Numbered from the stretch's first letter, positions 6,574 through 25,936 are shown. The stretch is DNA of 32,000 nucleotides from Comamonadaceae bacterium (GCA_947456305.1 CANGPN010000010.1:1-32000), one strand, 5' to 3'. Numbers and translations: made by a program. Notes: generated by a model not told the origin, from the letters alone.

Positions 6574-6647
6574 GTTAATCTTGACATCGTTTTAAAACTT
6601 GGCGCTGCCAGCGATTGTTATGCAGCCGCAACCGGAAAGAGATAAAC

Positions 6648-10367: not shown

Positions 10368-11155
10368 TGGGGCTTGCGATGAAAATTGCAATTAATATAG
10401 CTTTCATGATCTCCCCCCAATTCATCAGCCGCGTCACGCTGCGCCGTGACATCGTCGAATCCTTCGATGCCTACCCGTTCTCGTTGCCAACTGTTCGCAC
10501 ATTCGACTACTTGGAAATGCACCCCAAAGTCACCTATGTCATTGGTGAAAACGGTTCGGGCAAATCCACCTTGCTAGAGGCGATTGCAGTGTCCATGGGT
10601 TTTAACGCCGAGGGCGGCTCTAAAAACTTCAACTTCGGCACGCACCGCTCGCACTCAGACTTGCACCGCTATTTGCGCATTGCCAAAGGTTTTCGCAAAC
10701 CGCGCACCGGGTATTTTTTGCGTGCTGAAAGTTTTTACAACGTCGCCAGCGAAATCGACAAGCTCGATGCCGAGCCTGTGGCTGCGCCGCGCATCATCGA
10801 TGGCTATGGCGGGCGTTCTTTGCACCAACAATCGCACGGTGAATCTTTTTTGGCGTTGTTGACGCAACGCTTCAAAGGGGAGGGCTTGTACATACTGGAC
10901 GAGCCTGAGGCGGCCTTGTCGCCGCAGCGCCAGTTGGCGGTGCTTTCGCGTATTCATGATTTGGTGCAGGATGGTTCGCAGTTCATCATCGCCACGCATT
11001 CGCCCATACTCATGGCCTACCCGGATGCGTGCATTTACCAGTGCAGCAAAGAAGGCATTTCAACGGTGGCCTATGAGGACACGGAGCACTTTCAAGTGAC
11101 GCGCGATTTTTTAGCCAACCCGCAGCGCATGCTCAAGGTGTTGTTTCAGAGCTAG
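10367..11155 (+). CDS. stand-alone ABC-type/AAA ATPase (COG3910-like predicted ATPase)
   Basis: Walker A GENGSGKST, signature-like QSHGESF, Walker B LYILDEPEAALS and H-loop IIATHSP. No TM or substrate-binding partner is present. The start is ambiguous (10367, 10379 or 10406); the ATG at 10367 overlaps the matB-like TAA stop. Confidence 0.75.
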   Translation: MGLAMKIAINIAFMISPQFISRVTLRRDIVESFDAYPFSLPTVRTFDYLEMHPKVTYVIGENGSGKSTLLEAIAVSMGFNAEGGSKNFNFGTHRSHSDLHRYLRIAKGFRKPRTGYFLRAESFYNVASEIDKLDAEPVAAPRIIDGYGGRSLHQQSHGESFLALLTQRFKGEGLYILDEPEAALSPQRQLAVLSRIHDLVQDGSQFIIATHSPILMAYPDACIYQCSKEGISTVAYEDTEHFQVTRDFLANPQRMLKVLFQS

Positions 11156-11190
11156 TACCGGCTAGATGTTCAAGTAGCGGTCAGGTGTTA

Positions 11191-11922
11191 TCACTTTAAC
11201 CACTGCGGATCAGGCAACTGCCCGAACACCTGTCGCAAGCCCTTGCTCCAGCTGCTGCGCAAATCTCTGAAGTAGGTGTCTTCCGCGTCTATGCGGTGGC
11301 GTTTGGTGATACGCAAGTCGTCGGTTTTAACCATGGCCACGTCTATGGGCAAACCCACTGACAAATTACTTTTGATGGTGGAGTCAAACGACACCAGCGC
11401 GCATTTGATGGCCTGCGACATGCTGATACCGGGTTGTATGACGCGGTCCAAAATCGGCTTGCCGTATTTGCTTTCACCAATTTGAAAAAACGGTGTGTCT
11501 GCGGTGGACTCGATGAAATTGCCTTGCGGATACACCATGAACAAACGCGGTGCTTCGCCCTTGACCTGACCACCGACCAAAAACGTCGCAGAAAAATCCA
11601 CGTCGCTTTGTTCGGGCGCTTCGTTCAGGGTGGTGTGTATGGTTTTGCGCAATTCGCGGCCCACCAGTTCGGCCACGGTAAACATGGAGGCGTGGGCGGT
11701 GAGCGGTTTTTCTGCGTCTATGGCGTGTTGTTTGATGCGGCTGACCACTTGCTGCGTGGTGGCGAGGTTGCCGCTGTTGAGCATGACGATCACGCCTTGG
11801 CCCGGCGTTTCTATGACCGTCATCTTGCAAAACGTAGATACGTGGTCCACACCTGCGTTGGTGCGTGAGTCCGAGGCGAACACCAGTCCTTCGTCGAGGA
11901 CCATGCCAACACAGTAAGTCAT
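11191..11922 (-). CDS. Anbu (ancestral beta-subunit) proteasome-type peptidase
   Basis: MTYCVGMVLDEGLVFASDSRTNAG has Thr directly after the initiator Met (an Ntn-hydrolase nucleophile with no propeptide). It is the last gene of a cpATP-grasp/alpha-E/transglutaminase operon. Confidence 0.85.
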   Translation of the reverse strand: MTYCVGMVLDEGLVFASDSRTNAGVDHVSTFCKMTVIETPGQGVIVMLNSGNLATTQQVVSRIKQHAIDAEKPLTAHASMFTVAELVGRELRKTIHTTLNEAPEQSDVDFSATFLVGGQVKGEAPRLFMVYPQGNFIESTADTPFFQIGESKYGKPILDRVIQPGISMSQAIKCALVSFDSTIKSNLSVGLPIDVAMVKTDDLRITKRHRIDAEDTYFRDLRSSWSKGLRQVFGQLPDPQWLK

Positions 11923-11932
11923 GCTTAAAGCC

Positions 11933-12736
11933 TTATTGCTGATCGTGAATGGCTGATTCTACTTTTGCATAGCTGTGCATGACTTCTTTACCGCCGCCTA
12001 TGCGCACACCGCGCACCGGGCTGGCGTCTTCATAGTCCAGACCATGCGCCAGTCGGATATGGCCTTGGTCTGCATCGGTAGAGTTGCTGACGTCATAGCC
12101 TATCCACCGGTTGCCGACCCAAGCTTCAGCCCAGGCGTGACTGGCGACTTGCTCGTTATGCGCCGAATGCAAATACCCGCTGACGTAGCGCGCGGGCACA
12201 CCCAGGTAACGTGCACAAGCCAGAAACACATGCGTATGGTCTTGGCACACGCCTTTGCCTTTGGCAAACGACTGAGATGCCGAGTCACCTACGTGCGTGA
12301 TGCCGGTTTCATACGGCATGCGTTCCAGCAAAGCCAGCATCACATCATGCAAACCCATGTAGGGCCGCGACTTGACCGTGGCTTTGAAAGGATCAATAAA
12401 AGATTGGATGGACTGGTCGACGCTGGTCAAGGTGGTGGGCCGCAAAAACACTGCGTGCGGCACCAGGCCTTCAGGCTCGCCCTGATCGGTATCGATCAAC
12501 TCGACAGTGCCGCGCGCGCGCAACACAATGTCCTGGCTAGCGTTTTCCAACACCAAGCAATGGCACAAATTGCCAATAGCATCGGTCCAAGGCGTGGCTT
12601 TGCCGGGCAAGTCCAGGTGCCACTGCAACACGTTTTGCCTTTGCGTTTTGGTGGGTGTCATGCGCAGCATTTGTATGCTGCGGCGCACCGCTTGGTCGTA
12701 GCGGTAACTGGTTTCGTGAAAGACCTGCAGCTTCAT
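11933..12736 (-). CDS. transglutaminase-like cysteine protease family protein
   Basis: Core motif GKGVCQDHTHVFLACARYLGVPARYVSGY with downstream H and D residues. The ATG overlaps the alpha-E stop (ATGA). Confidence 0.85.
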   Translation of the reverse strand: MKLQVFHETSYRYDQAVRRSIQMLRMTPTKTQRQNVLQWHLDLPGKATPWTDAIGNLCHCLVLENASQDIVLRARGTVELIDTDQGEPEGLVPHAVFLRPTTLTSVDQSIQSFIDPFKATVKSRPYMGLHDVMLALLERMPYETGITHVGDSASQSFAKGKGVCQDHTHVFLACARYLGVPARYVSGYLHSAHNEQVASHAWAEAWVGNRWIGYDVSNSTDADQGHIRLAHGLDYEDASPVRGVRIGGGKEVMHSYAKVESAIHDQQ

Positions 12737-13683
12737 GCGATGGACTCCAGGTAATCGGTTTGCACCGCGTCGGCCAAGGCGATGTTTTCGGTGACAAACA
12801 TCTCCAAGTAGTTTTCCAAGCCACTGTCATACACCTCGGTCAAGCTGCCGTATTTCAAATTGGTCAACAGGTTGGCGCAGCGCTTGCGTGCTTCGCGGCC
12901 TGTTTGCTGCGGTAACTGGTTGAGGATGTATGCGGTTTCATCCAAACAAAAATGCAAGGAACGCGGTACACGCGCATTGAAGATCAGCAACTCGGACACA
13001 CGGTCTGCATCAATCGCGTCGCGGTAGGTGTCGCGGTAAGCCTCTAAGGCACTGACGGATCGCAACACCGCACCGAGCCGGTAGTAGTCGTCCACCAGGT
13101 TATTGCCTTCAGCTTGCTCCACCTGTGTTTTCACACTCAGAATACGTGCGGTGTTATCGGCACGCTCAAGGTAAGTGCCAAGGCGTATGAAGTGGTAAGG
13201 CTGGTCGCGCTGGATGGTGGCAAAGGTGACCCCGCGAAACAAATGCGAGCGTTGTTTGATCCATTCGAACAGCGAGGCATCCACCGCTTGATCGGCGCTT
13301 TTGTGTTTCTTTTTTCGCGCCAGCAATTCCAGCCAAGTGTCATTGATGCATTCCCACATTTCCACTGTCATGGCACCGCGCACCGAGCGTGCGTTTTCGC
13401 GGCACGACTGTATGCAGTTGAAGATGGATGAAGGGTGGTCCGGGTCCCAAGCCAAAAACTGCGCGACTTGGTCGGAGCGCATCGGCCTGCCGGTGGCTTC
13501 GAAGGCCGCCAGCGTGTCGGTGATGACCAGCGGTTCGCTGACCGTGTCCGGCGCGGCGCGGCTGCTGTCCGAGGTGGACAGCAAGGCGAACGACTGGCCG
13601 ACTTCCAAAATACGCGCCATGTTTTCAGCGCGCTCTAAATAGCGCGACAACCAATAGAGTTGCGCAGCAACACGTGACAGCAT
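12733..13683 (-). CDS. alpha-E domain protein (COG2307-type)
   Basis: MLSRVAAQLYWLSRYLERAENMARILEV is the typical alpha-E N-terminus. The start at 13683 overlaps the ATP-grasp stop (TGATG). The ORF-track extension to 13881 is Arg-rich junk that overlaps the upstream gene. Confidence 0.85.
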   Translation of the reverse strand: MLSRVAAQLYWLSRYLERAENMARILEVGQSFALLSTSDSSRAAPDTVSEPLVITDTLAAFEATGRPMRSDQVAQFLAWDPDHPSSIFNCIQSCRENARSVRGAMTVEMWECINDTWLELLARKKKHKSADQAVDASLFEWIKQRSHLFRGVTFATIQRDQPYHFIRLGTYLERADNTARILSVKTQVEQAEGNNLVDDYYRLGAVLRSVSALEAYRDTYRDAIDADRVSELLIFNARVPRSLHFCLDETAYILNQLPQQTGREARKRCANLLTNLKYGSLTEVYDSGLENYLEMFVTENIALADAVQTDYLESIA

Positions 13684-15107
13684 CAGAGCGCCTCCTCGTC
13701 TTCCAGCACCCAGGTGTCTTTGGTGCCGCCGCCTTGGGATGAATTGACCACCAACGAGCCTTCGCGCAAAGCCACGCGTGTCAGACCGCCTGGCACGATG
13801 CGCGTGTCTTTGCCCATGAGCACAAAGGGGCGCAAATCGATATGACGCGGCGCAATGCCTTGGTCGACAAAAATCGGGCAAGCTGACAAACTGAGCGTGG
13901 GCTGTGCGATGTAGTTGTCCGGTTGTGCTTTGAGCCGCACTGCGAAGTCCTCAATTTCTTGTTTGCTGGCGGTGGGCCCGACCAACATGCCGTAGCCGCC
14001 AGCGCCATGTACTTCTTTCACCACCAGTTGCGACAAATTTGCCAACACATAAGACAACTCATCGGGCTTGCGGCATTGCCAGGTTTGTACGTTGTTCAAA
14101 ATAGGCGTTTCGCTCAAATAAAAACGGATCATGTCCGGCACATACGGGTAGATAGATTTGTCATCCGCCACGCCGGTACCTAACGCGTTGGAGATGACCA
14201 CATTGCCTTGTCTGTACACCGAAGCCAAGCCGGGCACGCCTATCAAAGAATCCGGCTCGAAACTCAGCGGGTCCATGTAGACATCATCGACTCTGCGGTA
14301 GATGACATCGACCTGCTGCGGGCCTTCCGTGGTTTGCATGTACACATGGCCATTGCGCACAAACAGGTCTGAGCCTTCAACCAGTTCTATGCCCATTTGC
14401 TTGGCCAAAAACGCATGCTCGAAATACGCGCTGTTGAAACGCCCCGGCGTGTGCAACACGACAGTAGGCTGATCCACCCAACTGGCTGAGCGCAATGTTT
14501 GCAACAGCAGTGCTGGGTAGTGTTCCACCGGGCGCACCGCGTAGCGGCGAAACAAATCGGGGAACAAGCGCATCATCAGCAAGCGGTTGCTCAGCATGTA
14601 AGACACGCCTGAGGGCACGCGCAGGTTGTCTTCCAAAACATAAAAATCGCCGTCCGAATGCCGCACGATGTCCACGCCCGCGATATGCGCGTAAATCTGA
14701 TGCGGCAAATCCAGTCCGAGCATGATGGGCATGAACTGCGCATTCGCCATCACCTGTTCGGCAGGAATCAAACCGGCTTTCAAAATGCGTTGTCCGTGAT
14801 AGACATCATGCAAAAACATATTGATGGCTTTGACCCGCTGAATCAAGCCTTTTTCTAAGTGCGCCCATTCTTTGCCATGGATGATGCGCGGTATCAAGTC
14901 CGAGGGAATCAAGCGCTCGGTGCCGCCTTCGTCTCCGTTGAGTGAAAACGTGATGCCGGTGCGTCTGAAGATCAGGTCAGCCTCGGTTTGTTTGACCTGC
15001 ACGGTTTCGCGGGAAATGCCTTTAAGCCAACTGTCAAAGGCTTCGTAATGAGGTCTGGCATAACCGCCTTCATCACTCATTTCATTAAAAATGGACTTGC
15101 TGCTCAT
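13683..15107 (-). CDS. circularly permuted type-2 ATP-grasp protein (COG2308-type)
   Basis: A 474-aa protein. Its size, position and sequence (e.g. VVKEVHGAGGYGMLVGP, SSQGGGTKDTWVL) match the first gene of Anbu-type operons. Confidence 0.8.
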   Translation of the reverse strand: MSSKSIFNEMSDEGGYARPHYEAFDSWLKGISRETVQVKQTEADLIFRRTGITFSLNGDEGGTERLIPSDLIPRIIHGKEWAHLEKGLIQRVKAINMFLHDVYHGQRILKAGLIPAEQVMANAQFMPIMLGLDLPHQIYAHIAGVDIVRHSDGDFYVLEDNLRVPSGVSYMLSNRLLMMRLFPDLFRRYAVRPVEHYPALLLQTLRSASWVDQPTVVLHTPGRFNSAYFEHAFLAKQMGIELVEGSDLFVRNGHVYMQTTEGPQQVDVIYRRVDDVYMDPLSFEPDSLIGVPGLASVYRQGNVVISNALGTGVADDKSIYPYVPDMIRFYLSETPILNNVQTWQCRKPDELSYVLANLSQLVVKEVHGAGGYGMLVGPTASKQEIEDFAVRLKAQPDNYIAQPTLSLSACPIFVDQGIAPRHIDLRPFVLMGKDTRIVPGGLTRVALREGSLVVNSSQGGGTKDTWVLEDEEAL

Positions 15108-15208
15108 GGTGTACCCGGGCTGTGTGCGGTGTTGCAGGCTGTTAAAGCACGCTTCATGCCGTCATTTCTTTTCAACTCTCTCGGGCTGTGAATAGCTTGC
15201 GCTGATTT

Positions 15209-15251
15209 AGTGCGCACTGTTTAGGCTTGTGGATGCACTTTTAAAGTGCAT
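15209..15251. promoter_or_regulatory. pair of palindromes sharing GTGC/GCAC cores in a divergent 454-nt intergenic region (candidate operator sites)
   Basis: AGTGCGCACT (15209-15218) is a perfect 10-bp palindrome. ATGCACTTT-T-AAAGTGCAT (15233-15251) has 9-bp arms. Confidence 0.3.
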
Positions 15252-15561
15252 TGAAGGATACTTGCCGGAACTTTTTCTGATCAGCCCGCAACCGGGGTGC
15301 TTCTGAGGAACTATTTTGGATTTGTGCGTGCGATACGTTGTAAAAATCCCGCACTCAAGCTGATTTGCATACTTTTAAATACAAATAATGAATCGCTATA
15401 AACGCTAAATTCAGTAGAATTGAGAAAACTCCGAGCCCAAGCGCGTTGAGAGACAAGCGCTTAGCGAAAAGTGTTCAAGTGAAGCCAGCCGATAAGCTGC
15501 GGATACAGGCGAATAGCGGCTCCGCTGTTTTTAAATAACTGGTACGAATTGAGGTTTTGGC

Positions 15562-16962
15562 ATGCGGGTCGTGGATTGGTTCAAGAGACTGTTCTTGAGA
15601 AGTACCGCACAAGCGGAAAACCTGTCCATAGAAATCGACTCCATTGTTGAGCAATTCGAACTGGTCAAGGAAGCCAAACGCCTGGCCAAAATGGGCTTGC
15701 CGGCTTTTCACGAAAAAAAACCGACCAGTCTTGAACTCAATGTGGTTGAGCACATCAACCAATTGCGCGAGCAGGCCCAGCGGGATTACCTGCGCCGTAC
15801 CGAGGACATCCAAGCCCGTGTGCTGAGCTATGAGCTCAAGCACCAGTCCTTGCAGTCGGACGTCTTGAATGCTGAGTTTGAGCGACAAGCTCGAAAAATC
15901 ATGGACGAGCAGGGCGCCTGGTTGAAAAAACTCGCCTACAGCGCCATGACCCGGTTCAAAGAACTGGAAGCCTTCAAAAAGAAAAACGGTCTGGAACGCG
16001 AAGCCAATTACCCAAGTACCTCAGGCCTGGTGCTGCGTTATTCGGTGCTGGTGTTTCTGGTGGTGGTGGAAGGCATATTGAACGCCAACTTTTTTGCCGA
16101 AGGCCTTAGCTCCGGATTGATAGGCGGTTTCGTTTATGCCGCCTTGTTAGCTGCTATCAATGTGTTGGGGTGTTTTTTCCTCGGCAAATACGCCTTACCT
16201 TGGATAGTCAGCAAACCTGCAGCAGGTAAGGTTTTCGGCTATGTATCTCTGGCTTTCACCGCCTGTTTCATGTTGATGGTAGCCATGTCTATCGGTCACA
16301 TACGCGAGCAGTTGATGGCAGCCTCGGCCAATCCGACGCGAGACGCCTGGGAATTGATGCAAATGCATTTTTGGGGTTTAAGCGATCTGGTGTCCTGGTT
16401 TCTGGTGGCCATGTCCATGGGTTTTGGCATTGCATCCGTGTTTGACGGCTTGACCATTGACGATATGTACCCCGGCTATGGGGCAGTGGTTCGCCGTTGC
16501 AACAGCACGCGCGATGAGTTTGAAGCCGAATTTGAAGACATACGCGAAGAGCTGGAAGAGTTAAAGCAGGAAAAACTCGATTTGATCAACCACGGTTTTA
16601 AAACCCTGCATGAATTGATCGCTTCTTTGCGAAAAATGGTGCTGGAAAAGGAAGCCTTGCAGCGCGAATTTACCGACAAGCTCACCCAGTCGGAAGTGGT
16701 GCTTTACGCTGTGTTGCGCAAATTCCGCATGGAAAACGAAATCGCCCGGGATGACGGTTTGCGCCCAGGCTATTTTGACCACTTGCCTGCACTCGACCCG
16801 GTCAGCGTGCCCCGCATCACCAGCGATACCGAGCAAGCACTGATTGCCAAACTCGAGCAAGACATACGCGTGTACGAAAACACCGTCAGCGATCAGCGTG
16901 AAAAGGTTTACAACCTTTACGAGCAATGTATATCGCGTTTAAACCACTTGAAATACCACTGA
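15562..16962 (+). CDS. membrane protein: N-terminal coiled-coil-like region, four TM helices, C-terminal coiled-coil-like region; unknown function
   Basis: GAGG sits 7 nt upstream of the ATG. The first ~165 aa and last ~160 aa are charged and heptad-like. Hydrophobic segments: YSVLVFLVVVEGILNANFF, GGFVYAALLAAINVLGCFFLG, VFGYVSLAFTACFMLMVAMSIG, LVSWFLVAMSMGFGIASVF. Confidence 0.7.
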   Translation: MRVVDWFKRLFLRSTAQAENLSIEIDSIVEQFELVKEAKRLAKMGLPAFHEKKPTSLELNVVEHINQLREQAQRDYLRRTEDIQARVLSYELKHQSLQSDVLNAEFERQARKIMDEQGAWLKKLAYSAMTRFKELEAFKKKNGLEREANYPSTSGLVLRYSVLVFLVVVEGILNANFFAEGLSSGLIGGFVYAALLAAINVLGCFFLGKYALPWIVSKPAAGKVFGYVSLAFTACFMLMVAMSIGHIREQLMAASANPTRDAWELMQMHFWGLSDLVSWFLVAMSMGFGIASVFDGLTIDDMYPGYGAVVRRCNSTRDEFEAEFEDIREELEELKQEKLDLINHGFKTLHELIASLRKMVLEKEALQREFTDKLTQSEVVLYAVLRKFRMENEIARDDGLRPGYFDHLPALDPVSVPRITSDTEQALIAKLEQDIRVYENTVSDQREKVYNLYEQCISRLNHLKYH

Positions 16963-16972
16963 CACGCTTGCC

Positions 16973-17776
16973 ATGGCCCGACAAACCCGAGCGCAAAAAC
17001 GCAAAACCCGCATCAACATTGTGATGAGCGTGTTTTTCCTCGCAGTGGTTATCGTCGGTTTGGGTTCAGCCTACTGGTGGACTTCTCAGCGCAAGCCCGG
17101 GCTTGACCCGGTCAGTCTGTGTCCTGCCGAAGGTCCACTCGGGCAACGGGTGTTGCTGATAGACCGTACCGATCCTTTTAATTTGGCGCAAAAAACCTCG
17201 CTGGATATTTTCATCAAACAACTGGTTGAGAACACGCCCCCGGGCTATTTGCTGTCGGTATATGTGCTGGGCGATGATTTCAAGGCCAACACCCAACCCT
17301 TGTTCGAGTTGTGCAATCCCGGCGACGGACAGGAAAAAAGCCAGTTGACTGCCAATCTCAAAGCCTTGAAGCAGCAATACATCAAGCATTTCATTGAACC
17401 AATGTTGTCGGTCTCACAAGGCATGATGGAAGTGCCCTCGGCTAAAGAGTCGCCTATCTTGGAAATGTTGCAACTGGTGAATTTGAACTCCATCAGAAAA
17501 AATAATGTCCAGGGCGATGTCGTGCTTTACGTGTTGTCGGACATGCTGCAAAACAGCAAAGCCTTGAACATGTACGGCAAGCCGGTCAGCTTTGAAAGTT
17601 ATGCCTCGGGGTATGCGGCGAGCAAGTTATTTGTAGATTTCAGCCGGGTCAAGATCGAGGTGCATTTGGTCAACAGCAGTCCGCGAACCTTGAACCCTGG
17701 CCTGTTGGATTTCTGGAAAGCGTATTTTGAAAAAGCCGGTGCCACCGACGTCAGCTTTCATGCCTTGGCGGGTTAA
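16973..17776 (+). CDS. single-pass membrane protein with a vWA-like/Rossmannoid alpha-beta domain; unknown function
   Basis: Basic N-terminus MARQTRAQKRKTR, then TM INIVMSVFFLAVVIVGLGSAYWW. An alternating beta/alpha pattern follows, from RVLLIDRTD to VVLYVLSDMLQNS. It starts 10 nt after the previous stop. Confidence 0.65.
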   Translation: MARQTRAQKRKTRINIVMSVFFLAVVIVGLGSAYWWTSQRKPGLDPVSLCPAEGPLGQRVLLIDRTDPFNLAQKTSLDIFIKQLVENTPPGYLLSVYVLGDDFKANTQPLFELCNPGDGQEKSQLTANLKALKQQYIKHFIEPMLSVSQGMMEVPSAKESPILEMLQLVNLNSIRKNNVQGDVVLYVLSDMLQNSKALNMYGKPVSFESYASGYAASKLFVDFSRVKIEVHLVNSSPRTLNPGLLDFWKAYFEKAGATDVSFHALAG

Positions 17777-17779
17777 GCC

Positions 17780-18301
17780 ATGAAAGATTTGTACAAAGTC
17801 CTGGGGTTGCTGCCTCAAGCCGAGCCCGAGGTGATAAAGGCTTCTTTCAAGGTGTTGGCTCAAAAATACCACCCTGACAAGCACCCGGACAAAAAACTGC
17901 TTTACACGCAAATCATGACTGAGCTCAACGAGGCGCATGCCGTGTTGTGCAATGCCAAACGCCGCAAAGATTACGATCTGGCTTGGAAAAAATTCACCGA
18001 TAAACACCCAGAGGCTGCACCCAAAGGGGATGCAGACAAAGAAACTTCACACAAGGCCGAAACCGCCAAACCGCCGCCACCGCCCAAGGCCCGTAAACAC
18101 GACACAGTGTTAAAGCACATCGCGGGTAACAAAATTGATGAATTCCAGTTAATGCAAATCTACAAAGATTTATTTGGCGAGGATTTGAAAATTCAATCCG
18201 GCTGGACCAACCATTACGCCGTCAAAGTAGACGGTAAAACCACTACCTACAACTTCAGCCAACTGAAGAACCTCATCATCGACAAGCTGTCAGAAAACTA
18301 G
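17780..18301 (+). CDS. J-domain (DnaJ-like) protein with a Lys/Pro-rich linker and an unknown C-terminal domain
   Basis: DLYKVLGL...ASFKVLAQKYHPDKHPD has the HPD tripeptide at 17870-17878. The linker contains PPPPPK. No TM segment is present. It starts 3 nt after the previous stop. Confidence 0.8.
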   Translation: MKDLYKVLGLLPQAEPEVIKASFKVLAQKYHPDKHPDKKLLYTQIMTELNEAHAVLCNAKRRKDYDLAWKKFTDKHPEAAPKGDADKETSHKAETAKPPPPPKARKHDTVLKHIAGNKIDEFQLMQIYKDLFGEDLKIQSGWTNHYAVKVDGKTTTYNFSQLKNLIIDKLSEN

Positions 18302-18309
18302 GGGGCCTC

Positions 18310-19089
18310 ATGGAATACCCGTTCGAGAAATACCGTTCCACGCAAAAAGACAAAACAGCTTTTCATCAGTTGCTGCCTCAGGTCAGCGCCGCCATGCCAG
18401 AGTTCTTTCGCGCACTGGCCGTGGCTTACCAAAGCATTGAACAAAAAAACATGTTCAATCAGCCGCAAGGTATACGCCAGAGCACCGGCTTGACCAGTTC
18501 GCTTAATCTGTTGCTGGTGGCCATGGTGAACGACAAGGTATTGGGTTTAGATGCGGGAACCAGTGGTTGTGTGGACGCCTTGCGGGTGCTGGTGTTGAAG
18601 TGGTATTCGTTCGGTAACGACTTAAAAGCTTGTTTGTACTTTGGCTACTATTTTTATACGCACAAAAGCGTGTCTGAGCATGAGGTGAGAAATCAACTTG
18701 AAGCAGTGCGTTTTCTGGTCGATGAAACCAGCAAAAAAAGCGAAGACCCCCGCATAAAGGCTTTGCTGGCACCGCCAAATTCATTCAGTTGGTACACCGG
18801 CGAAAACCTGATCGGCGACAAACTGCACAACCTGAGCGTGCAAAAAGGCGATTTTGCGCGCGTCGATTTGCCCAGGCCCGGTTACCAGATCACGTTCAAA
18901 GCCAGCCAGATGTATGACTTGCGTGTACCTGTGAGCCTGAGCGATGGCCAAGTTGAGCGCCCTTTGATCAGCGACGGCAAGGCAGTGGTCAGTTGCCCGT
19001 CATGCTCGCAGAAATGCCGTGTGAAGTTGTTCAAACACATGGAAATCAAATGCCCCAAATGCCAGCAGGCCTGGGTGCAGTCGGCTTGA
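18310..19089 (+). CDS. hypothetical protein with a C-terminal four-Cys zinc ribbon
   Basis: GGGGG lies upstream of the ATG. The C-terminal CPSC-x15-CPKC is encoded at 18994-19062. The rest of the protein has no domain I recognise. It starts 8 nt after the previous stop. Confidence 0.65.
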   Translation: MEYPFEKYRSTQKDKTAFHQLLPQVSAAMPEFFRALAVAYQSIEQKNMFNQPQGIRQSTGLTSSLNLLLVAMVNDKVLGLDAGTSGCVDALRVLVLKWYSFGNDLKACLYFGYYFYTHKSVSEHEVRNQLEAVRFLVDETSKKSEDPRIKALLAPPNSFSWYTGENLIGDKLHNLSVQKGDFARVDLPRPGYQITFKASQMYDLRVPVSLSDGQVERPLISDGKAVVSCPSCSQKCRVKLFKHMEIKCPKCQQAWVQSA

Positions 19090-19203
19090 ACAGCACCCGT
19101 TAGCATGCAATTTAATGCATAAATTTTGGACATTCAAAGCCCGTTGCTTGTTGATAAGACAAGACTTATTGAGAAACCCTTGATCGCATAGGTATTTACA
19201 CGG

Positions 19204-19231
19204 TTGCATTCCGGTGCATGGTTGAAATAAT
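19204..19231 (+). promoter_or_regulatory. candidate sigma70-type promoter for the CuMMO operon (TTGCAT-16 nt-AATAAT)
   Basis: The -35-like TTGCAT is at 19204-19209 and the -10-like AATAAT at 19226-19231, about 50 nt upstream of ATG 19283, which has an AAGGAG RBS. This is pattern matching only. Confidence 0.25.
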
Positions 19232-19282
19232 TGTTGTCGATTCTTTTCAATCAGTTTCCATTCCTAAACAAGGAGCCGCTGA

Positions 19283-20062
19283 ATGTCTACCTTAACCAGT
19301 CAACAAATCAACCTGACCCGTTCCGAGGAAAAAGTTTCTCGCTTTACCCTCAGCTATGTCTGGTTTGCCGTCGCCATGATTGTGCTGACAGGCGTTTATG
19401 TCTCTTACCGTCTGTACCAACAGATGTACGGCATGACTGCCGGCTTGGACTCGACAGAACCTATTTTCCAGGACATCTGGATGCGCCTTTTTTATATACA
19501 ACTGCCGGTTTTGTTCGGCATTGTTGCGCTGATTCAGGTCTACCTGTTTTTCACCCGCGACCGAAACATAGATGCCATTACACCTGAAGTTGAACTCAAA
19601 CGTTATTTCTATCTCACCATGTGGCTGGTGGTTTACACCTTCACTTTTTACTGGATCGGCAGCTTCTTTGGCGAAGGCGACGGCAACTGGCACCAAACAG
19701 TGCTGCGTGACACACCCATCACACCCAGCCATGTGGTCTTGTTTTACGCATGTATTCCCATGTACCTGATGTTCGGTATCGGCAGTTTTGTCTATGCCAT
19801 GACCCGTATTCCTGCATTTTGTAAAGGCATTTCATTGATGCACGTGTTCGCTGTAGTGGGCCCATTTTTGATTTTGCCCAATCTGGGCTACAACGAATGG
19901 GGCCATGCCTACTGGTTGACTGAAGAAATCTTTTCTCATCCCTTGCATTGGGGTTTTGTGGTGCTGGGCTGGAATGCCTTGTCACTCGCAGGCGTCTTGA
20001 TGCAAATCATTTCGCGCTTTCGTGAACTGATGCCCATCGTTTTCAAAAACGAAATAGCCTGA
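19283..20062 (+). CDS. copper membrane monooxygenase subunit C (PmoC/AmoC family)
   Basis: Blocks GEGDGNWHQTVLRDTPITPSH and PNLGYNEWGHAYWLTEEIFSHPLHWGF align by eye with PmoC. The D133/H137/H150 and N204/H208/H222 metal-ligand spacings are conserved. Confidence 0.9.
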   Translation: MSTLTSQQINLTRSEEKVSRFTLSYVWFAVAMIVLTGVYVSYRLYQQMYGMTAGLDSTEPIFQDIWMRLFYIQLPVLFGIVALIQVYLFFTRDRNIDAITPEVELKRYFYLTMWLVVYTFTFYWIGSFFGEGDGNWHQTVLRDTPITPSHVVLFYACIPMYLMFGIGSFVYAMTRIPAFCKGISLMHVFAVVGPFLILPNLGYNEWGHAYWLTEEIFSHPLHWGFVVLGWNALSLAGVLMQIISRFRELMPIVFKNEIA

Positions 20063-20088
20063 CCAGCCAGCCTACTTAGGAATTCACC

Positions 20089-20940
20089 ATGAACACTGAA
20101 ACTCTGCAACACCCTGGCGGTGCGGCGGCAGGACAAACGCACGCCCAAGATACTGTGATCAGCGTGTCAGGACTGTCCCCCAAAGCACTTCACTATTCCC
20201 GCGTCTTCGAACTTTTTGTGGTGGCCGCTATCATCATGTTGTTTGCCGGCGCTATCCACTTGCACGTCTTGCTGTTAGCCGGCGACTGGGACATGTTTCT
20301 TGACTGGAAAGACCGTCAGTACTGGCCCCTCTTATCACCGGTAGTCATGATCATGTTCCCGGCTGCCTTGCAGGGCATTTTCTGGACTTACTTTCGCTTA
20401 CCGATAGGCGCGACCGTAGGTGCTACTTGTTTGATGTTGGCCGTGTCTATTTCCAGACCCGCATCCTTCATGTGGTGGACAGACTACCCCCTCAATCTGG
20501 TACTGCCGGCGCAAATGATTGCGGGTGCCATCGTGCTGGATGTGTTTCTGCTGGTGTTTCGTAATGCGTTGTTCACCGCCATATTCGGCGGTTTTGCATT
20601 TGCGTTTTTGTTCTACCCGTCCAACTACACCATTTTTGCGCCGTTTTATGTGCCAGTCAGCCATCAAGGCATGATGGCCTCCATGGCCGACTTGATAGGT
20701 TATGTGTATCCGCGCTCTGCCACGCCGGAGTATATACGCATCATCGAACGCGGCACATTGCGCACCTTTGGCGACTCCGCCAGTTGGGTGTCGGCCCTTT
20801 TTGGCGGATTTATTTGCATCTTCATGCACTATGCCTGGTGGTACTTGGGCATTGCCATGTCATCCATGAAATTCTTGCCCAACAACGCCAAAGTCATGGC
20901 ATTGATGGGCACCAAAGCAGACGCAAAAGCAGGTGCTTGA
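20089..20940 (+). CDS. copper membrane monooxygenase subunit A (PmoA/AmoA family)
   Basis: WDMFLDWKDRQYWP, LFYPSNYTIFAP, TPEYIRIIERGTLRTFG and WWYLG are hallmark AmoA/PmoA blocks, though the protein is divergent overall. Confidence 0.9.
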   Translation: MNTETLQHPGGAAAGQTHAQDTVISVSGLSPKALHYSRVFELFVVAAIIMLFAGAIHLHVLLLAGDWDMFLDWKDRQYWPLLSPVVMIMFPAALQGIFWTYFRLPIGATVGATCLMLAVSISRPASFMWWTDYPLNLVLPAQMIAGAIVLDVFLLVFRNALFTAIFGGFAFAFLFYPSNYTIFAPFYVPVSHQGMMASMADLIGYVYPRSATPEYIRIIERGTLRTFGDSASWVSALFGGFICIFMHYAWWYLGIAMSSMKFLPNNAKVMALMGTKADAKAGA

Positions 20941-20965
20941 GCGCCTGCCTTCAAGGGGAAAAATC

Positions 20966-22225
20966 GTGCTGTTAATTCAAAAAACCATGAAGATGTGGGC
21001 GCTTTGCCTGGGGCTGGTGCTGGCGGCCGGTGCTGCCACTGAGACTGCCTGGGCGCATGGAGAGCGTTCTCAAGAACCTTATCTGCGTACCCGCACTGTT
21101 CAGTACTATGACGTGCATTACGACAAGCAAACAGTCAAAGTGAACGAGGAATTCACTTTGGTCGGTAAGTTCCGTTTGATGGAAGACTGGCCGGATGCAG
21201 TCAGCTTGCCTGAGACTGTTTTCTTGTCCGCCTATGCACCCGGTCCCATGATCACACGCGTGGAAAGCTACCTCAATGGCATGCCTGCGCGCCAGTCATT
21301 TTCCAAGCTTGAATTGGGCCGTGACTACGAATTCAAGTTAGTTATGAAGGGTCGCATACCGGGTAGACACCACATCCATCCATTACTGTCTGTCAAAGGT
21401 TCTGGCCCCCTGGTAGGGCCCGGGCAATGGATAGAAGTAACCGGCAGCAAAGCAGATTACCTGATGCCTGTGACGACTATGAATGGCGTGAAGATCGACA
21501 ACATCGAGTTCTATGGAATCTCACGTGCGCTGAAATGGTATGGCGTGTGGATTGCTTTGGCTGCCTTTTGGTTGCTGTTCTGGTTGGTTCGGCCGCTGCT
21601 GTTACCCCGTTGGATGGCTTTACAAAAAGGCCGCGAAGATGTGTTGATCTCCAACCGTGATATCACGGTGGGCGTGATCTTGGGCGTGGTAGTGGTTGCA
21701 ATCTCATTTGGCGGCTATTTCTACGCCAAGCAGGAGTACCCTTATGTTGTTCCCTTGCAAGCCGGTACCAACAAAATTGATCCTCTGCCCAAACCTGCTC
21801 ACTCGGTAGAAGTCTCGGTATTGAAAGCCAGCTATGACGTACCCGGACGCGCCATGCACGTCACTACGCGCATGACCAACCATGGTTCTGAGCCGGTGTC
21901 TGTGCTTGAGTTCGCCACAGCCAATCTGCGTTTTGTGAATCAGCAAGCCCCCGGCGCCGACAAAGCCGTCAGTGCCGACTATCCGCGTGATTTGGTTGCT
22001 CGCGGCGGACTGGGACTTTCAGATCAAAAACCTTTGATGCCGGGTGAAACCCGTGATGTCAAGTTCGAAGCCAGCGACGCACTTTGGGAAGTAGAGCGAC
22101 TGGTCAGTTTCTTGACTGACGTGGACTCCAAATTCGGTGGTTTGCTGTTCTTTGTTGACAAATCCGGCAACCGGTTGATGACTGAAATCAGCGGTCCTAT
22201 TCTTCCGACCTTCACGGCTTTGTGA
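20966..22225 (+). CDS. copper membrane monooxygenase subunit B (PmoB/AmoB family)
   Basis: The signal peptide ends AWA|HGERSQEPY, giving an N-terminal His like PmoB His33. A GRHHIHP H-x-H motif is at 21371-21379. Two TM helices lie mid-protein. The start is GTG 20966 (AAGGGGA RBS) or ATG 20987. Confidence 0.88.
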   Translation: MLLIQKTMKMWALCLGLVLAAGAATETAWAHGERSQEPYLRTRTVQYYDVHYDKQTVKVNEEFTLVGKFRLMEDWPDAVSLPETVFLSAYAPGPMITRVESYLNGMPARQSFSKLELGRDYEFKLVMKGRIPGRHHIHPLLSVKGSGPLVGPGQWIEVTGSKADYLMPVTTMNGVKIDNIEFYGISRALKWYGVWIALAAFWLLFWLVRPLLLPRWMALQKGREDVLISNRDITVGVILGVVVVAISFGGYFYAKQEYPYVVPLQAGTNKIDPLPKPAHSVEVSVLKASYDVPGRAMHVTTRMTNHGSEPVSVLEFATANLRFVNQQAPGADKAVSADYPRDLVARGGLGLSDQKPLMPGETRDVKFEASDALWEVERLVSFLTDVDSKFGGLLFFVDKSGNRLMTEISGPILPTFTAL

Positions 22226-22226
22226 A

Positions 22227-22802
22227 ATGCAAATAAATCAGGTTTTGGCGGGCTGTTGCCTGTGGCTGGCAAGCGCCGGTGCTATGGCCCACGGTGGTTT
22301 GTCCATGGAGCAAGACATGTGCAAACTCACTGTCGGTCCCTACATGATGCATTTTGCGGGTTACCAGGAAGATGCGCAGCGAACAGAGTTTTGCGAAGAC
22401 ATACCGCATAAAGGCCCGACCATCATCGTGCTTGATGTGGTGGACTTGGCGCTGCGGGATTTACCCATTGAATTCCGCATCGTTCGCAAAACCGATGGCT
22501 CACTGGATTCTGCTCCTGAAGTCTTTAAGCTTAACCCGACTGTATATCCCAAAGGCACACTGATGGTGCGACATGACTTCATGGAGGACGGCGACTATGT
22601 AGGCCTGGTGTATGCAGGGGCTAACCGTCAATACGCTTCGGTTTTTCCCTTCTCGGTAGGCAAACCAGTGACAGCCTATTGGAAATACACCTTGGGCCTG
22701 GTTCTCTTGCTGTTGTTGGCCGTGTTGGGTCTGCAAGTCGGTCGTCAAAGATTGCAAAGAGATGTGGCCATGCAGGACTTCAACGACCCAAAGGCACACT
22801 GA
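22227..22802 (+). CDS. secreted, C-terminally anchored protein in the AmoD/PmoD position of the operon
   Basis: The signal peptide ends AMA|HGG. A Met/Cys/His-rich segment HGGLSMEQDMCKLTVGPYMMHF follows, then a beta-rich domain and a C-terminal TM LGLVLLLLLAVLGLQVG. It starts 1 nt after the subunit B stop. Confidence 0.6.
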   Translation: MQINQVLAGCCLWLASAGAMAHGGLSMEQDMCKLTVGPYMMHFAGYQEDAQRTEFCEDIPHKGPTIIVLDVVDLALRDLPIEFRIVRKTDGSLDSAPEVFKLNPTVYPKGTLMVRHDFMEDGDYVGLVYAGANRQYASVFPFSVGKPVTAYWKYTLGLVLLLLLAVLGLQVGRQRLQRDVAMQDFNDPKAH

Positions 22803-22804
22803 AG

Positions 22805-23167
22805 ATGCGCGCCTTACAGCGCTGGTTTTTTTTGAGTATGGCGTGTCTGCCTTTGTGGGCTTCTGCGCATGCACATTTGCTGAACTCAGAACCGCCCGCC
22901 AATGCGCTCATCAGCCAATCTCCGAACCAATTGAGGTTGCGGTTTTCTGAGCCTATCGAGAAAAAGTTTGTGCGTATCAATGTCATGGCTGATTCACACA
23001 GTTTGACATTGACTTCAGAAAATATCCAATGGATTGCTGAAACCAAAACACTGTTGGTTAATTTGCCCGTGCATCAGGCCAGCAGCTATGAGGTTCAATG
23101 GTCTATCTTGGCAAAGGACGGACACGCGAGTCGAGGGCAGTTCGTCTTTAAAGTCAAATCGCCTTAG
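22805..23167 (+). CDS. copC: CopC-family periplasmic copper-binding protein
   Basis: The signal peptide ends ASA|HAHLLNSEPPANA, the typical CopC N-terminus with His1. The size fits a CopC beta-sandwich. The start is ATG 22805. Confidence 0.85.
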   Translation: MRALQRWFFLSMACLPLWASAHAHLLNSEPPANALISQSPNQLRLRFSEPIEKKFVRINVMADSHSLTLTSENIQWIAETKTLLVNLPVHQASSYEVQWSILAKDGHASRGQFVFKVKSP

Positions 23168-23169
23168 CT

Positions 23170-25056
23170 GTGGATCCAATCATCGCATTGCGAGGTGTGC
23201 AAACGGCATTGACGGCATTTGCATTCGGTGTGCTGTGGACTTCATCTTTCAAGGCCTTTGGCAAGTCAAAAAATCCTGCAACTCGCACCGCCATGGGTTT
23301 GGTTTTTTTGGCTTTAGTTTTGGCCTTGATTCGTTTGGTTTGTACCGCCTGGACTCTCCAAGGATTAAGCGGCGAAGAAAATACTTACCTACTGATTTCG
23401 CAAACCTATGTGGGCCAAATCATATGTGCACAAACCGCTTGCTTGCTATTGACGCTTGTATGCCTGTTGTTCATCACTTCCATCAAACCCGGTGTGTTTT
23501 TTTTATTCATCGCCATGCTGGGTTCTGCTTTGTCTGGTCATGTCGCTGCGGCGGCAGACCACTGGAGCCAGACAGTGGTGTCCGTCTTGCATGTGGTGTT
23601 TGCCCAGTTGTGGCTGGCAGGTCTGATCAGCCTAGGCTGGCAGGCTAAATCCAGTGAATCCACAAGCGACATTTGGCGCCTGCGCCTGGCGCGATTTTCA
23701 AAATGGGCGTTGCCCGCTATGTCGCTGATCTTGCTTTCTGGCATCCTTCTTTCCAGATGGACTGTGGCGAGCTGGCCGGGTTTGTTGGCAACGCCTTACG
23801 GATTGCTGCTGATGATTAAATTAATGATGGTTTCTGGCGTGTTGTTATGCGCCTTTCAATTGCGTCGTTGGCTCAGTACCCACCCGACTTCTAATGCAAT
23901 GGCTCGTACTTGGTTGACCAGTGAAATCAGCTTGGCCTTGGCTGTATTGTTCATGGCCGGTTGGTTGGCATCCACAGTACCTGCTGCCCATGAGACCATC
24001 TTCTGGCCTTTTACTTTCCGCTGGGCCGCTGTACTTGCATGGCAACAAGATCCTGTCAGCACCGGGCAACAACTGGCACTGGGGATGATGCTTGGCTTGA
24101 TTGGTCTTTCTTTATGGCTGATTTGGCGCCAAGCCTACCCGCGCCGCGCGAAATGGGCGCTGATCATTAGCGTATTGACCGCATCGGTGGTGACTCTGGC
24201 TGCCACCAGCATTCCCGCTTACCCCAGCACTTATATCCATTCACCAGCGCGACTGGATACTGCTTCCGTTTACGCAGGTCAGGTTTTGTATGAGCAGCAT
24301 TGTTTGGCATGCCATGGCCTACACGCTCGTGGGGATGGCCCTGTGGCCCGGTTAAACCAGTTGAAACCTGCCAACCTGACTGAACCTCATGTGAATTGGC
24401 ACACCCATGGCGATATGTTTTGGTGGCTCAGCCACGGCAAAGGGGATATGCCGGGATTTGCAGACGTACTGTCAATTGACGAGCGCTGGCATCTGATCAA
24501 CTGGTTGATTACGCTGTCAATGGGTTACGAAGCGCGCACGCTCACCCCTAAGCCCGCGCCGTTCAATCCTTGGCTGCCCAGTATTGATTTCCGCTTTCAA
24601 ATGGAGAACAACAGCTTCATCTCTTTGTCTGAGTGGCGCGGCTTGCATGCGGTACACCTGGTTATCGTCAATCAATCAGCGGAATTAAAAAGAGCACAGG
24701 AATTGTTAACCCAGATGAAAGGCTTTCCAGCCCAACTTGTCATCGTGGTTAAACCCGAATGGTCTCAAGTTCTTGACAAAGGATCTTGCGAAGCCATCAT
24801 CGTTGCCGATAAGAATGGCGATATTGCCAAGGCATGGTCACACTACCGTCGCAGCTTCGCTTCACCGGATTTTGAAAATCAAGATCAGCAGGTGGCCAGA
24901 ACAGAGTTTTTGATTGATCGTTTTGGGTTTGTGCGTGCCCGTTGGCGGTCCGATGAAATGCCAACCGCGGCACCTGTCGCTGAGCTCAAAGTTTTGTATG
25001 ACAGTTTGTCGCTTGAGGGCGAAATCAAATCGGCAGCCATACATCAACATGACTGA
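23170..25056 (+). CDS. copD: CopD-family membrane protein fused to a cytochrome c domain and a Cys-less thioredoxin-fold domain
   Basis: About 10 hydrophobic helices occupy aa 1-350. CLACHG is encoded at 24301-24318, with a later GDMPGF. The C-terminal domain is AhpC/TlpA-like (EFLIDRFGFVRARW), but QSAE replaces the CxxC position. The start is GTG. Confidence 0.8.
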   Translation: MDPIIALRGVQTALTAFAFGVLWTSSFKAFGKSKNPATRTAMGLVFLALVLALIRLVCTAWTLQGLSGEENTYLLISQTYVGQIICAQTACLLLTLVCLLFITSIKPGVFFLFIAMLGSALSGHVAAAADHWSQTVVSVLHVVFAQLWLAGLISLGWQAKSSESTSDIWRLRLARFSKWALPAMSLILLSGILLSRWTVASWPGLLATPYGLLLMIKLMMVSGVLLCAFQLRRWLSTHPTSNAMARTWLTSEISLALAVLFMAGWLASTVPAAHETIFWPFTFRWAAVLAWQQDPVSTGQQLALGMMLGLIGLSLWLIWRQAYPRRAKWALIISVLTASVVTLAATSIPAYPSTYIHSPARLDTASVYAGQVLYEQHCLACHGLHARGDGPVARLNQLKPANLTEPHVNWHTHGDMFWWLSHGKGDMPGFADVLSIDERWHLINWLITLSMGYEARTLTPKPAPFNPWLPSIDFRFQMENNSFISLSEWRGLHAVHLVIVNQSAELKRAQELLTQMKGFPAQLVIVVKPEWSQVLDKGSCEAIIVADKNGDIAKAWSHYRRSFASPDFENQDQQVARTEFLIDRFGFVRARWRSDEMPTAAPVAELKVLYDSLSLEGEIKSAAIHQHD

Positions 25057-25909
25057 ACCTGTGCATCAATCGCCTCCCAAAACCGATGTGCTGCAATGGG
25101 GCCAGCGGCTGATTACCGTTTTGCTGTTGGCCGGGCTATGTGTGGTGTTGGTGCAAATTTTGTTCAAGCCCGCATTACCACAGGCGGTGGCTGCGTTGAA
25201 AGATGTGCCCGGCAATTGTTCTTCCGGTTTGAGCGGCAAGCCGGGGCGGCATGCGGATTTGCATACACACAGCGGGCTTGGCTTTAGTGTGATTACGCCT
25301 TCGAATTACTCGGTTCAAAACAAATACGGCTTGGTGATGGTTTTTCCACCCGCAGGTTTTTCGGCGGAATCTGCTGAACGCTATTACCAATTGACTGCGA
25401 GAGCGAACGCACAGGGTTATGTGGTGGTTTACAGCGCTGCGATTGCACTGTCAACTCGTGCGCTGCGTATGCAGCACGAAGTTGTTCCGCAAGTCATGGC
25501 GACTTGGTGTATCGATCCTTCAAGAATAGTATTTGCCGGGCACTCGGACGGCGGCAGCGTGACCGCGGGATTGACGGTCAGAGAAACTGACCACAGTTTG
25601 CAGCCGACCCACGTGGTCATCAGCGCCGCAGGCATCACTGCAGAAGATTTGGCACAGGAAAAGTGTCCAGCTCCGTTGAATGTCACTCTATTGCACAACC
25701 CCGATGATGAATTGTTTCCAGCTTACGGTCAGGGTGCAGCTAAGTGGTGGGGACAATGCATGCAATGCAAAGCTGAAGTGATTACCGAGGCTTCGGGATG
25801 TCTGGTCAGGCAATGCGCCGGGCAAAAGCTGTTGAGGTATTGTGCGACTTCCGAGCCGCATACAAAATGGCCATCGGTGACGGCGCATATGTTTGAGTGG
25901 CTTGATTAA
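25049..25909 (+). CDS. membrane-anchored alpha/beta hydrolase (PHB-depolymerase/LpqC-family esterase-like)
   Basis: TM anchor LITVLLLAGLCVVLVQILF and nucleophile elbow IDPSRIVFAGHSDGGSV. ATG 25049 overlaps the CopD-fusion stop by 8 nt. Confidence 0.7.
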   Translation: MTEPVHQSPPKTDVLQWGQRLITVLLLAGLCVVLVQILFKPALPQAVAALKDVPGNCSSGLSGKPGRHADLHTHSGLGFSVITPSNYSVQNKYGLVMVFPPAGFSAESAERYYQLTARANAQGYVVVYSAAIALSTRALRMQHEVVPQVMATWCIDPSRIVFAGHSDGGSVTAGLTVRETDHSLQPTHVVISAAGITAEDLAQEKCPAPLNVTLLHNPDDELFPAYGQGAAKWWGQCMQCKAEVITEASGCLVRQCAGQKLLRYCATSEPHTKWPSVTAHMFEWLD

Positions 25910-25936
25910 GACAGAACGGGAAGGGGCGTTGGTAGA

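Follow-up and report, generated by a model that had tools for sequence, protein, structure and literature searches.

A four-gene membrane module with a J-domain protein is one clade's version of a widespread, unnamed two-protein core

A four-gene module and the described systems nearest to it

In Zorya, a motor anchored in the envelope is coupled to effectors in the cytoplasm (PMC11946911), and transmembrane (TM)-tethered vWA proteins that work with TolQ-like motors have been proposed as periplasmic force transducers (PMC12204202). Hsp70 and J-protein machinery also has precedents in bacterial immune sensing: phage sensing by bNACHT25 requires DnaJ (PMC12169576), and the predicted CoCoNuT restriction systems carry Hsp70-like domains (PMC11090510). 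Here we describe a module of four genes, P1 to P4, encoding a four-TM protein, a TM-anchored protein of predicted vWA fold, a J-domain protein and a zinc-ribbon protein. The module occupies positions 15562-19089 on the + strand of a 32,000-nucleotide (nt) stretch of DNA from a Comamonadaceae bacterium (GCA_947456305.1, CANGPN010000010.1:1-32000), which is referred to below as the window. P1-P4 constitute a conserved, so far undescribed membrane module, and within it the P1-P2 pair belongs to a widespread, unnamed two-protein membrane core of which the window carries a clade-specific variant.

The four open reading frames (ORFs) encode P1, the core membrane protein (466 amino acids [aa], 15562-16962); P2, its core partner (267 aa, 16973-17776); P3, the candidate J-domain co-chaperone (173 aa, 17780-18301); and P4, the zinc-ribbon protein (259 aa, 18310-19089). 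An ORF listing reproduced the arrangement reported in the original prediction for this DNA, with four same-strand ORFs separated by 10, 3 and 8 nt, a 454-nt non-coding region upstream (15108-15561) and a 193-nt gap downstream, before amoC/pmoC (19090-19282; 40% GC). The upstream region, presumed to hold the promoter and 5' leader of the operon, had been described as AT-rich and the module as a stretch of lower GC; the direction of both statements stands, but at 46% and 51% GC, respectively, the departure from the 53% of the window is only mild. The leader is conserved at the nucleotide level from ~15336 onward in two relatives (L007 and L008). A simple scan around the module found no sigma-70 consensus promoter or intrinsic terminator above shuffled sequence and no terminator-like site on the + strand of 19090-19282, and no Rfam element was matched in 15050-19350.

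Purifying selection on all four genes is strong, with ratios of nonsynonymous to synonymous substitution rates against the L008 orthologues of 0.058 for P1, 0.078 for P2, 0.108 for P3 and 0.074 for P4 (0.06-0.11 overall), and each is kept in dozens of genomes. That the genes form a unit, as had been proposed from their spacing, is borne out by about 30 independent loci in which P3-P4 stand beside P1-P2.

The original prediction could assign this unit to no named system, and searches of Pfam, NCBIfam, PHROGs, PADLOC and the PDB likewise place it in none. In the first four of these collections the only significant match to P1-P4 was the J domain of P3, aside from generic zinc-ribbon noise; none of the PADLOC-DB v2.0.0 models matched P2, P3 or P4, and the phage collection held no homologue of P1. 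The module also differs from Zorya types I-III (PMC11946911, PMC11890865) component by component. The window has no ZorA, as P1-P4 match no MotA_ExbB or ZorA model, and it has no ZorB, the modelled fold of P2 being vWA rather than OmpA and its TM helix being without a conserved acidic residue.

The P1-P2 core and its alternative partners

P1 and P2 each have dozens of homologues, labelled 'hypothetical'. A profile search with P1 returned 2,942 clusters at 50% identity with E<=1e-3 (1,296 with E<=1e-30), while a genome scan with the P2 alignment identified 80 loci from Beta- and Gammaproteobacteria and Desulfobacterota. Plasmid searches extended the P1-P2 family to Alphaproteobacteria and found the cluster on plasmids as well as chromids. 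When all components were mapped by tblastn, P1 adjoined P2 in 85 of 86 loci. The true conserved unit is the P1-P2 pair, and P3-P4 are a clade-specific accessory. In the fetched loci ORFs were called by a simple longest-ORF rule, which over-extends some N-termini.

We sorted the loci by what accompanies the pair. Class A, to which the window belongs, joins P1-P2 with the J-domain/zinc-ribbon pair in colinear or divergent orientation (27 loci, together with L087, L092, L098 and L099). Class B (37 loci) joins P1-P2 with a 4-TM MotA/ExbB-like protein (G3) and a single-pass 'LSLTE' protein (G4), often with a thermonuclease in addition. Class C comprises P1-P2 alone, in counts that include a few truncated contigs, and one of its clades carries a gene for a secreted 124-aa protein 5' of the pair. 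This small protein, with a signal peptide and two cysteines, is encoded directly upstream of P1-P2 at 8147-8521 of locus L040 and in 11 further loci, and could act on the vWA domain in the periplasm, as its partner or its ligand.

The class B cluster has the order P1-like, P2-like, MotA/ZorA-like, MotB/ZorB-like, often with a signal-peptide thermonuclease in addition, and occurs in Alpha-, Beta- and Gammaproteobacteria and Desulfobacterota, including megaplasmids (L005, 7850-13519; L088, 10001-16056; L094, 6902-12461; L095, 6917-12069; L100, 7932-12236; L101, 7917-12262). G3 has four TM helices and a long coiled-coil tail; of 31 members, 19 matched Pfam MotA_ExbB, and matches to several ZorA models of PADLOC had E values of 1e-3 to 1e-5. 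G4, whose TM helix bears the conserved 'LSLTE', matches ZorB models and carries the annotation 'OmpA family protein' in Rhizobium, Sinorhizobium and Paracoccus; its C-terminal domain is predicted to be periplasmic. In these profile matches, G3 and G4 behave like a distant ZorAB/MotAB pair. The thermonuclease has a signal peptide and an Excalibur domain and is adjacent in at least 15 of the 37 motor-type loci. P1, P2 and P4 showed no relationship to the motor partners with which they were compared: hhalign gave a probability of 1.2% for P1 as a paralogue of the MotA-like partner family, and probabilities below 3% for P2 against the MotA-like or MotB-like partners and for P4 against the MotB-like partner.

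It is this sister architecture that most resembles Zorya, in its 4-TM coiled-coil protein and MotB/OmpA-like partner with weak ZorA and ZorB matches, its nuclease and its occurrence in defence islands; an envelope-anchored complex that signals to the cytoplasm, as we propose below for the module, would be a further likeness. The Zor matches of the sister class, however, lie far under family level (E about 1e-5), its nuclease is secreted and not cytoplasmic, and PADLOC found no ZorC/D, ZorE or ZorF/G match in its proteins or in P1-P4. Its core proteins have no PADLOC model, and the sister cluster itself appears to be an undescribed Zorya-like system. Searches of part of the literature on J-domain, vWA, MotA or thermonuclease defence systems returned no account of the module or of this sister five-gene cluster, and an earlier description elsewhere is possible.

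A neighbour-joining tree of P1 groups every class A locus in a single Burkholderiales clade. The clade with the secreted 124-aa protein is sister to it, and class B is diverse and deep-branching, a topology that points to the J-domain/zinc-ribbon pair as a single derived replacement of the motor-nuclease module. Co-inheritance of the four genes, which the original prediction had singled out for checking, is found within part of the family: P3-P4 accompany P1-P2 in the loci counted above, and in most lineages the partners of the core are the MotA/ZorA-like and MotB/ZorB-like proteins and a secreted thermonuclease. One P3-P4 pair (L093, 7516-8780) has no P1-P2 within 8 kb, so in some cases P3-P4 may have a different partner or one encoded farther away. 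In L093 the pair stands beside a GT4-conflict glycosyltransferase and an AAA/VWA_CoxE pair.

Folds, motifs and topology of the four proteins

P1 has four hydrophobic helices, all within residues 151-294, in a TM block (aa 151-296, 16012-16449) that separates an N-terminal charged helical region (aa 1-150) from a C-terminal charged, heptad-like region (aa 297-466). The flanks are 34% charged and contain stretches with a 3.5-residue hydrophobic periodicity, so that TM prediction, composition and periodicity agree with the heptad-like arms described earlier. As P1 has no signal peptide and an even number of helices, both arms should be cytoplasmic. Across the family (alignment A2), invariant polar residues lie in or at the membrane block (E170, N174, N200, H246, R248, D295, D300 and D301), followed by the motif YPGYG. 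Profiles of P1, P2 and P4 found no relative below E 0.25 among PDB sequences. We rejected two PADLOC matches, Mem_01 (E 0.0016 for P1, seen in only 3 of 31 family members) and LeoBC (5 of 31 members, probably reflecting coiled-coil composition). Pfam LMBR1 matched 4 of 31 P1 homologues, with a best E of 2e-7 that is under the gathering score and a span covering TM4 and the coiled coil, and was treated as probably compositional. A 137-aa antisense ORF that overlaps the start of P1 (15475-15888, - strand) is most likely a spurious by-product of the opposite coding strand.

P2 has the very basic N-terminus and single TM helix that had been read from the sequence; TM prediction placed the helix at residues 14-32, within an anchor taken as aa 14-36 (17012-17080). 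The protein was modelled with AlphaFold2 on 32 homologues at a mean confidence (pLDDT) of 80, with the vWA domain at aa 55-267 (17135-17773), and a Foldseek search of the PDB with this model returned vWA domains with probability 1.0 and E 2e-5. The matches comprised CMG2/anthrax receptor, integrin I domains, BatB (3ibs, 4jdu), Rpn10 and Sec23/24, with template-modelling scores, normalised to the target, of 0.5-0.6. The model thus has a Rossmann-like alpha/beta vWA fold, which confirms the vWA-like domain that had been suggested; Pfam VWA models gave no match to P2 at E<=1. Both strings on which that suggestion was based, RVLLIDRTD and VVLYVLSDMLQNS, are present.

The same suggestion had included an incomplete metal-ion-dependent adhesion site (MIDAS). 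In alignment A1 the motif is D64-x-T66-D67-P68 ... S160 ... D190, compared with the canonical DxSxS...T...D, and is non-canonical in that the third serine is replaced. The family-invariant residues include D64, T66, S160 and D190, together with C50 and C114, and D67 is nearly invariant; in the modelled fold the conserved D64/T66/D67, S160 and D190 sit on the three MIDAS loops. The predicted metal-ion site would accordingly be read as a conserved variant (D-x-T-D-P ... S ... D) and not as a decayed one. Because six basic residues precede its sole TM helix and two cysteines (C50, C114) are invariant, P2 is most likely oriented N-in/C-out, with the vWA domain in the periplasm.

Such a topology resembles that of the TolQ-associated vWA proteins (PMC12204202), whose only TM helix, at the N-terminus, precedes a predicted periplasmic vWA domain, and in the sister class the P2 gene adjoins a gene of the MotA/TolQ family. 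P2 differs from them in its TM helix (residues 14-36), which has no invariant column in alignment A1 and so neither the conserved SHLS/His motif nor the Asp. The linker between helix and domain, at ~20 aa in the model, is also too short for the domain to reach the outer membrane. Moreover, the sister class has a separate MotB-like protein, and the window has no motor gene at all. BatA and BatB of the Bacteroides aerotolerance operon are likewise membrane-anchored bacterial vWA proteins, BatB being among the Foldseek matches above, but their MIDAS motif differs, they show no sequence-level similarity to P2, and no MoxR ATPase, DUF58, TPR or other Bat gene lies near the module.

P3 contains the canonical J domain that had been recognised in it (aa 3-66, 17786-17977; Pfam DnaJ, E 3.9e-16), with the HPD motif at residues 31-33 and at the positions first given, 17870-17878. 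Among 25 distinct aligned orthologues the HPD is invariant, the Lys/Pro/Ala-rich linker is variable, and a C-terminal domain of ~70 aa (aa ~105-173, 18092-18298) is conserved. The J domain is the sole match in P3: we found no glycine/phenylalanine-rich (G/F) region, CxxCxGxG zinc finger or DnaJ C-terminal domains, and no TM helix was predicted. A bona fide DnaJ or CbpA was rejected, NCBIfam DnaJ and CbpA scores being far under cut-off (e.g. 53 vs 377 bits), and the 'CbpA' label given to P3 by one source is unjustified. On its domain content, P3 is a genuine type III J protein. J domains recruit and activate Hsp70/DnaK, and because its HPD is intact and helix II/III is conserved, P3 would be expected to stimulate the ATPase of DnaK/Hsp70.

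Like the type III J proteins DjlA and CbpA, P3 combines an HPD-bearing J domain with a specialised C-terminal domain that is not that of DnaJ, and presumably it is recruited to a membrane complex. It differs from DjlA in having no TM anchor, and from both in that it lacks the G/F region and the DnaJ zinc-finger and C-terminal domains; no relatives have been described for its own C-terminal domain or for P4, its obligate neighbour. The immune precedents differ as well: bNACHT25 (PMC12169576) and CoCoNuT (PMC11090510) involve a housekeeping DnaJ or an Hsp70-like domain, with no dedicated J protein and no component common to the module.

P4 was modelled by AlphaFold2 with high confidence (pLDDT 89.9; predicted template-modelling score, pTM, 0.86) as a helical domain (aa 12-152, 18343-18765) and a beta-rich domain (aa 161-259, 18790-19086). 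The latter ends in the CPSC-x15-CPKC ribbon (residues 229-251), which lies at 18994-19062 as originally placed. A Foldseek search with the model found no significant neighbour in the PDB (best E 0.5) and nothing in BFVD past the ~40-aa ribbon. The P4 family is narrow, with 65 hits, every one of them 'hypothetical'.

Explanations for the module and its genomic setting

The reading that we favour, tentatively and at somewhat less than even confidence, is that the module is a conflict system that monitors the envelope and employs DnaK by way of P3. P1 would span the inner membrane four times with its charged helical arms in the cytoplasm and form a complex with P2, whose periplasmic vWA site (D64-x-T66-D67, S160, D190) would bind a ligand or sense an envelope disturbance. 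Candidate triggers are phage adsorption, DNA injection or another invasion-linked perturbation. P1 would then pass the signal over the membrane by way of its conserved polar TM residues and coiled-coil arms. In class B the same event would be linked to a ZorAB-like proton motor and to a secreted nuclease, an output that P3 and P4 would have replaced once, in the Burkholderiales clade of the window. There, P3 would dock through its C-terminal domain and load host DnaK through its J domain and HPD; DnaK might remodel P4, the P1 arms or both, thereby arming or resetting the system, and the output could consist of ions leaking through P1 or of P4 binding nucleic acids.

Were the core an envelope sensor, a large family for which neither Pfam nor PADLOC has a model (~2,900 clusters at 50% identity) would join the few membrane-level detectors of invasion, of which Zorya is the main example. 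The family would also offer a natural experiment in which one sensor is wired either to a proton motor and nuclease or to a J-domain protein, and a dedicated J protein would make the question of DnaK as an immune switch directly testable. More broadly, P1-P2 could be a widespread immune-sensor family with exchangeable actuators, here a J protein and a new-fold zinc ribbon that conscript DnaK, a generalisation that we consider unlikely. If it is true, the module would be the first defence system with a J-domain co-chaperone of its own, and DnaK would serve as an energy-consuming switch.

The original prediction had listed a conflict or abortive-infection-type system among its hypotheses, and this idea gains indirect support from the sister architecture, with its ZorAB-like motor, its nuclease and its defence islands. 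In Pseudomonas, one class B locus belongs to an integrative island that also holds AlpA, YfjJ, DUF3987, HipAB, UvrD, a DEAD helicase and BrxC/D. A second is flanked by HNH, UvrD+PDDEXK and a giant kinase-DUF4011-AAA_11/12 protein, and a third lies among HsdM, BrnTA, SIR2, Endonuclease_NS, UmuDC and IS66; a further locus of this architecture stands beside a Phd/ParE toxin-antitoxin pair and a patatin. A fixed core, swapped modules and a patchy distribution are also typical of conflict systems. Within class A, one locus with divergent P1 and P3-P4 (L099, 1-6045) abuts phage-type thymidine-hypermodification genes, its neighbours being DUF4031, thymidylate synthase, aGPT-Pplase3/ADDT, an M78 peptidase and many small ORFs. 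These surroundings suggest a prophage or phage-derived island beside the module.

Several findings weigh against a conflict system. Family scans recognised no toxin or nuclease domain in P1-P4, which also match no PADLOC model significantly. The defence-island tally stands at 3 clear and 2 weaker cases of 9 distinct contexts and carries no background statistic, and on rhizobial and Paracoccus megaplasmids the sister architecture is found among efflux, sugar-transport and redox genes. The five distinct annotated class A neighbourhoods are all of housekeeping character (TRAP/TctC transporters, metabolic enzymes and an ATP-grasp operon). Finally, synteny around the locus is stable across relatives that are only 70-80% identical in nucleotides, unlike a typical mobile defence island.

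Much of this would suit an envelope-stress or homeostasis device, in which the periplasmic vWA domain and P1 watch the envelope (protein, peptidoglycan or outer membrane) and P3 brings DnaK for a response through P4. A parallel is offered by membrane-anchored DjlA, which together with DnaK sets off the Rcs envelope response. Not only the J-domain clade but also the clade with the secreted protein sits among housekeeping genes in stable synteny, several alphaproteobacterial megaplasmid loci of the motor type have metabolic or transport neighbourhoods, and a toxin-like domain is absent from P1-P4 by the family scans. Envelope processes have also been proposed for MotAB/TolQR-like motors and TM-tethered vWA proteins (PMC12204202, PMC12505986). 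Against such a device, three phylogenetically unrelated motor-type loci lie inside dense defence or mobile islands, a secreted nuclease as a frequent partner is hard to fit with homeostasis, the patchy distribution and exchanged partner modules of the family are typical of conflict systems, and P3 has no membrane anchor of its own. The envelope-stress idea of the original prediction fits the class A neighbourhoods; we think this explanation rather unlikely on balance, though it is a serious rival to the conflict reading. Should it be correct, freshwater Burkholderiales, which are abundant, would still hold here a conserved module that has yet to be characterised.

The signal-peptide thermonuclease with its Excalibur domain raises a different prospect, that the core family takes part in a periplasmic DNA-handling or surface process powered by a MotAB-like motor, with the window variant as a derived offshoot. 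Candidate processes are the degradation or exclusion of conjugative or transforming DNA, the scavenging of extracellular DNA and the turnover of biofilm matrix. The frequency of the nuclease in motor-type loci, the presence of the cluster on plasmids and chromids, and the predicted periplasmic position of both the vWA domain and the G4 C-terminal domain would all agree with such a process. We regard it as improbable: the clade of the window has lost motor and nuclease, so that the role is not directly transferable, the ZorA-like long cytoplasmic tail of G3 points to cytoplasmic signalling, and genes for DNA uptake or conjugation are not consistently nearby in class B neighbourhoods.

The remaining proposal ties the module to the copper membrane monooxygenase (CuMMO) genes that follow it. 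Pfam matches to AmoC (19283-20062), AMO (20089-20940) and Monooxygenase_B (20933-22225) span 19283-22225 and are followed by a 191-aa ORF, CopC, a CopD-cytochrome c fusion gene (23170-25056) and a 331-aa ORF. When the window was compared by blastn with six syntenic relatives (L007, L008, L011, L014, L016 and L018), all freshwater Comamonadaceae/Limnohabitans-like and without CuMMO, homology stopped at 19089-19094 and restarted at 25975-26091. In these relatives P4 is followed almost at once by a convergent mpaB-like gene, the homologue of the window from 25995 onward. Thus, 19092-25994 is a 6.9-kb insertion that holds the whole CuMMO cluster and lies beside a pre-existing, vertically inherited module; its left edge, at ~19092, falls within the first nucleotides of the gap behind P4. 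Neither flanking repeats nor mobility genes were seen at the insertion, by which this lineage acquired a copper monooxygenase.

CuMMO genes were present in 0 of the 86 compared loci and in none of the later annotated neighbourhoods apart from those of the window's own population, so the module does not track CuMMO operons. An assembly, membrane-remodelling or chaperone factor for CuMMO, as once suggested for P1-P4, has in its favour only adjacency and co-orientation (193 nt from P4 to amoC/pmoC with no terminator-like site between them, repeated in four metagenomic contigs of the same population), and given the insertion and the absence of CuMMO from relatives it is refuted as an evolutionary association and can be set aside. 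The envelope-sensing conflict system is more likely than such a helper. For study of this CuMMO operon, P1-P4 fall outside the operon, whose cluster was inserted into a conserved locus.

Directly upstream of the module, on the - strand, lies an operon encoding proteasome-type, transglutaminase, Alpha-E and circularly permuted ATP-grasp proteins (11191-15107). It is kept beside the module in most close relatives, with the ATP-grasp protein at 93-96% aa identity, and shows no functional link to it. Farther upstream, ~6550-11200 of the window has a GC content of 0.61-0.64 and holds a 506-aa ORF without a Pfam match, an AMP-binding enzyme (8826-10367) and an AAA_21/AAA_15-type ATPase (10367-11155). 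This region is missing in L014, L016 and L018 and partly present in L007 and L008, and it looks like a second variable segment.

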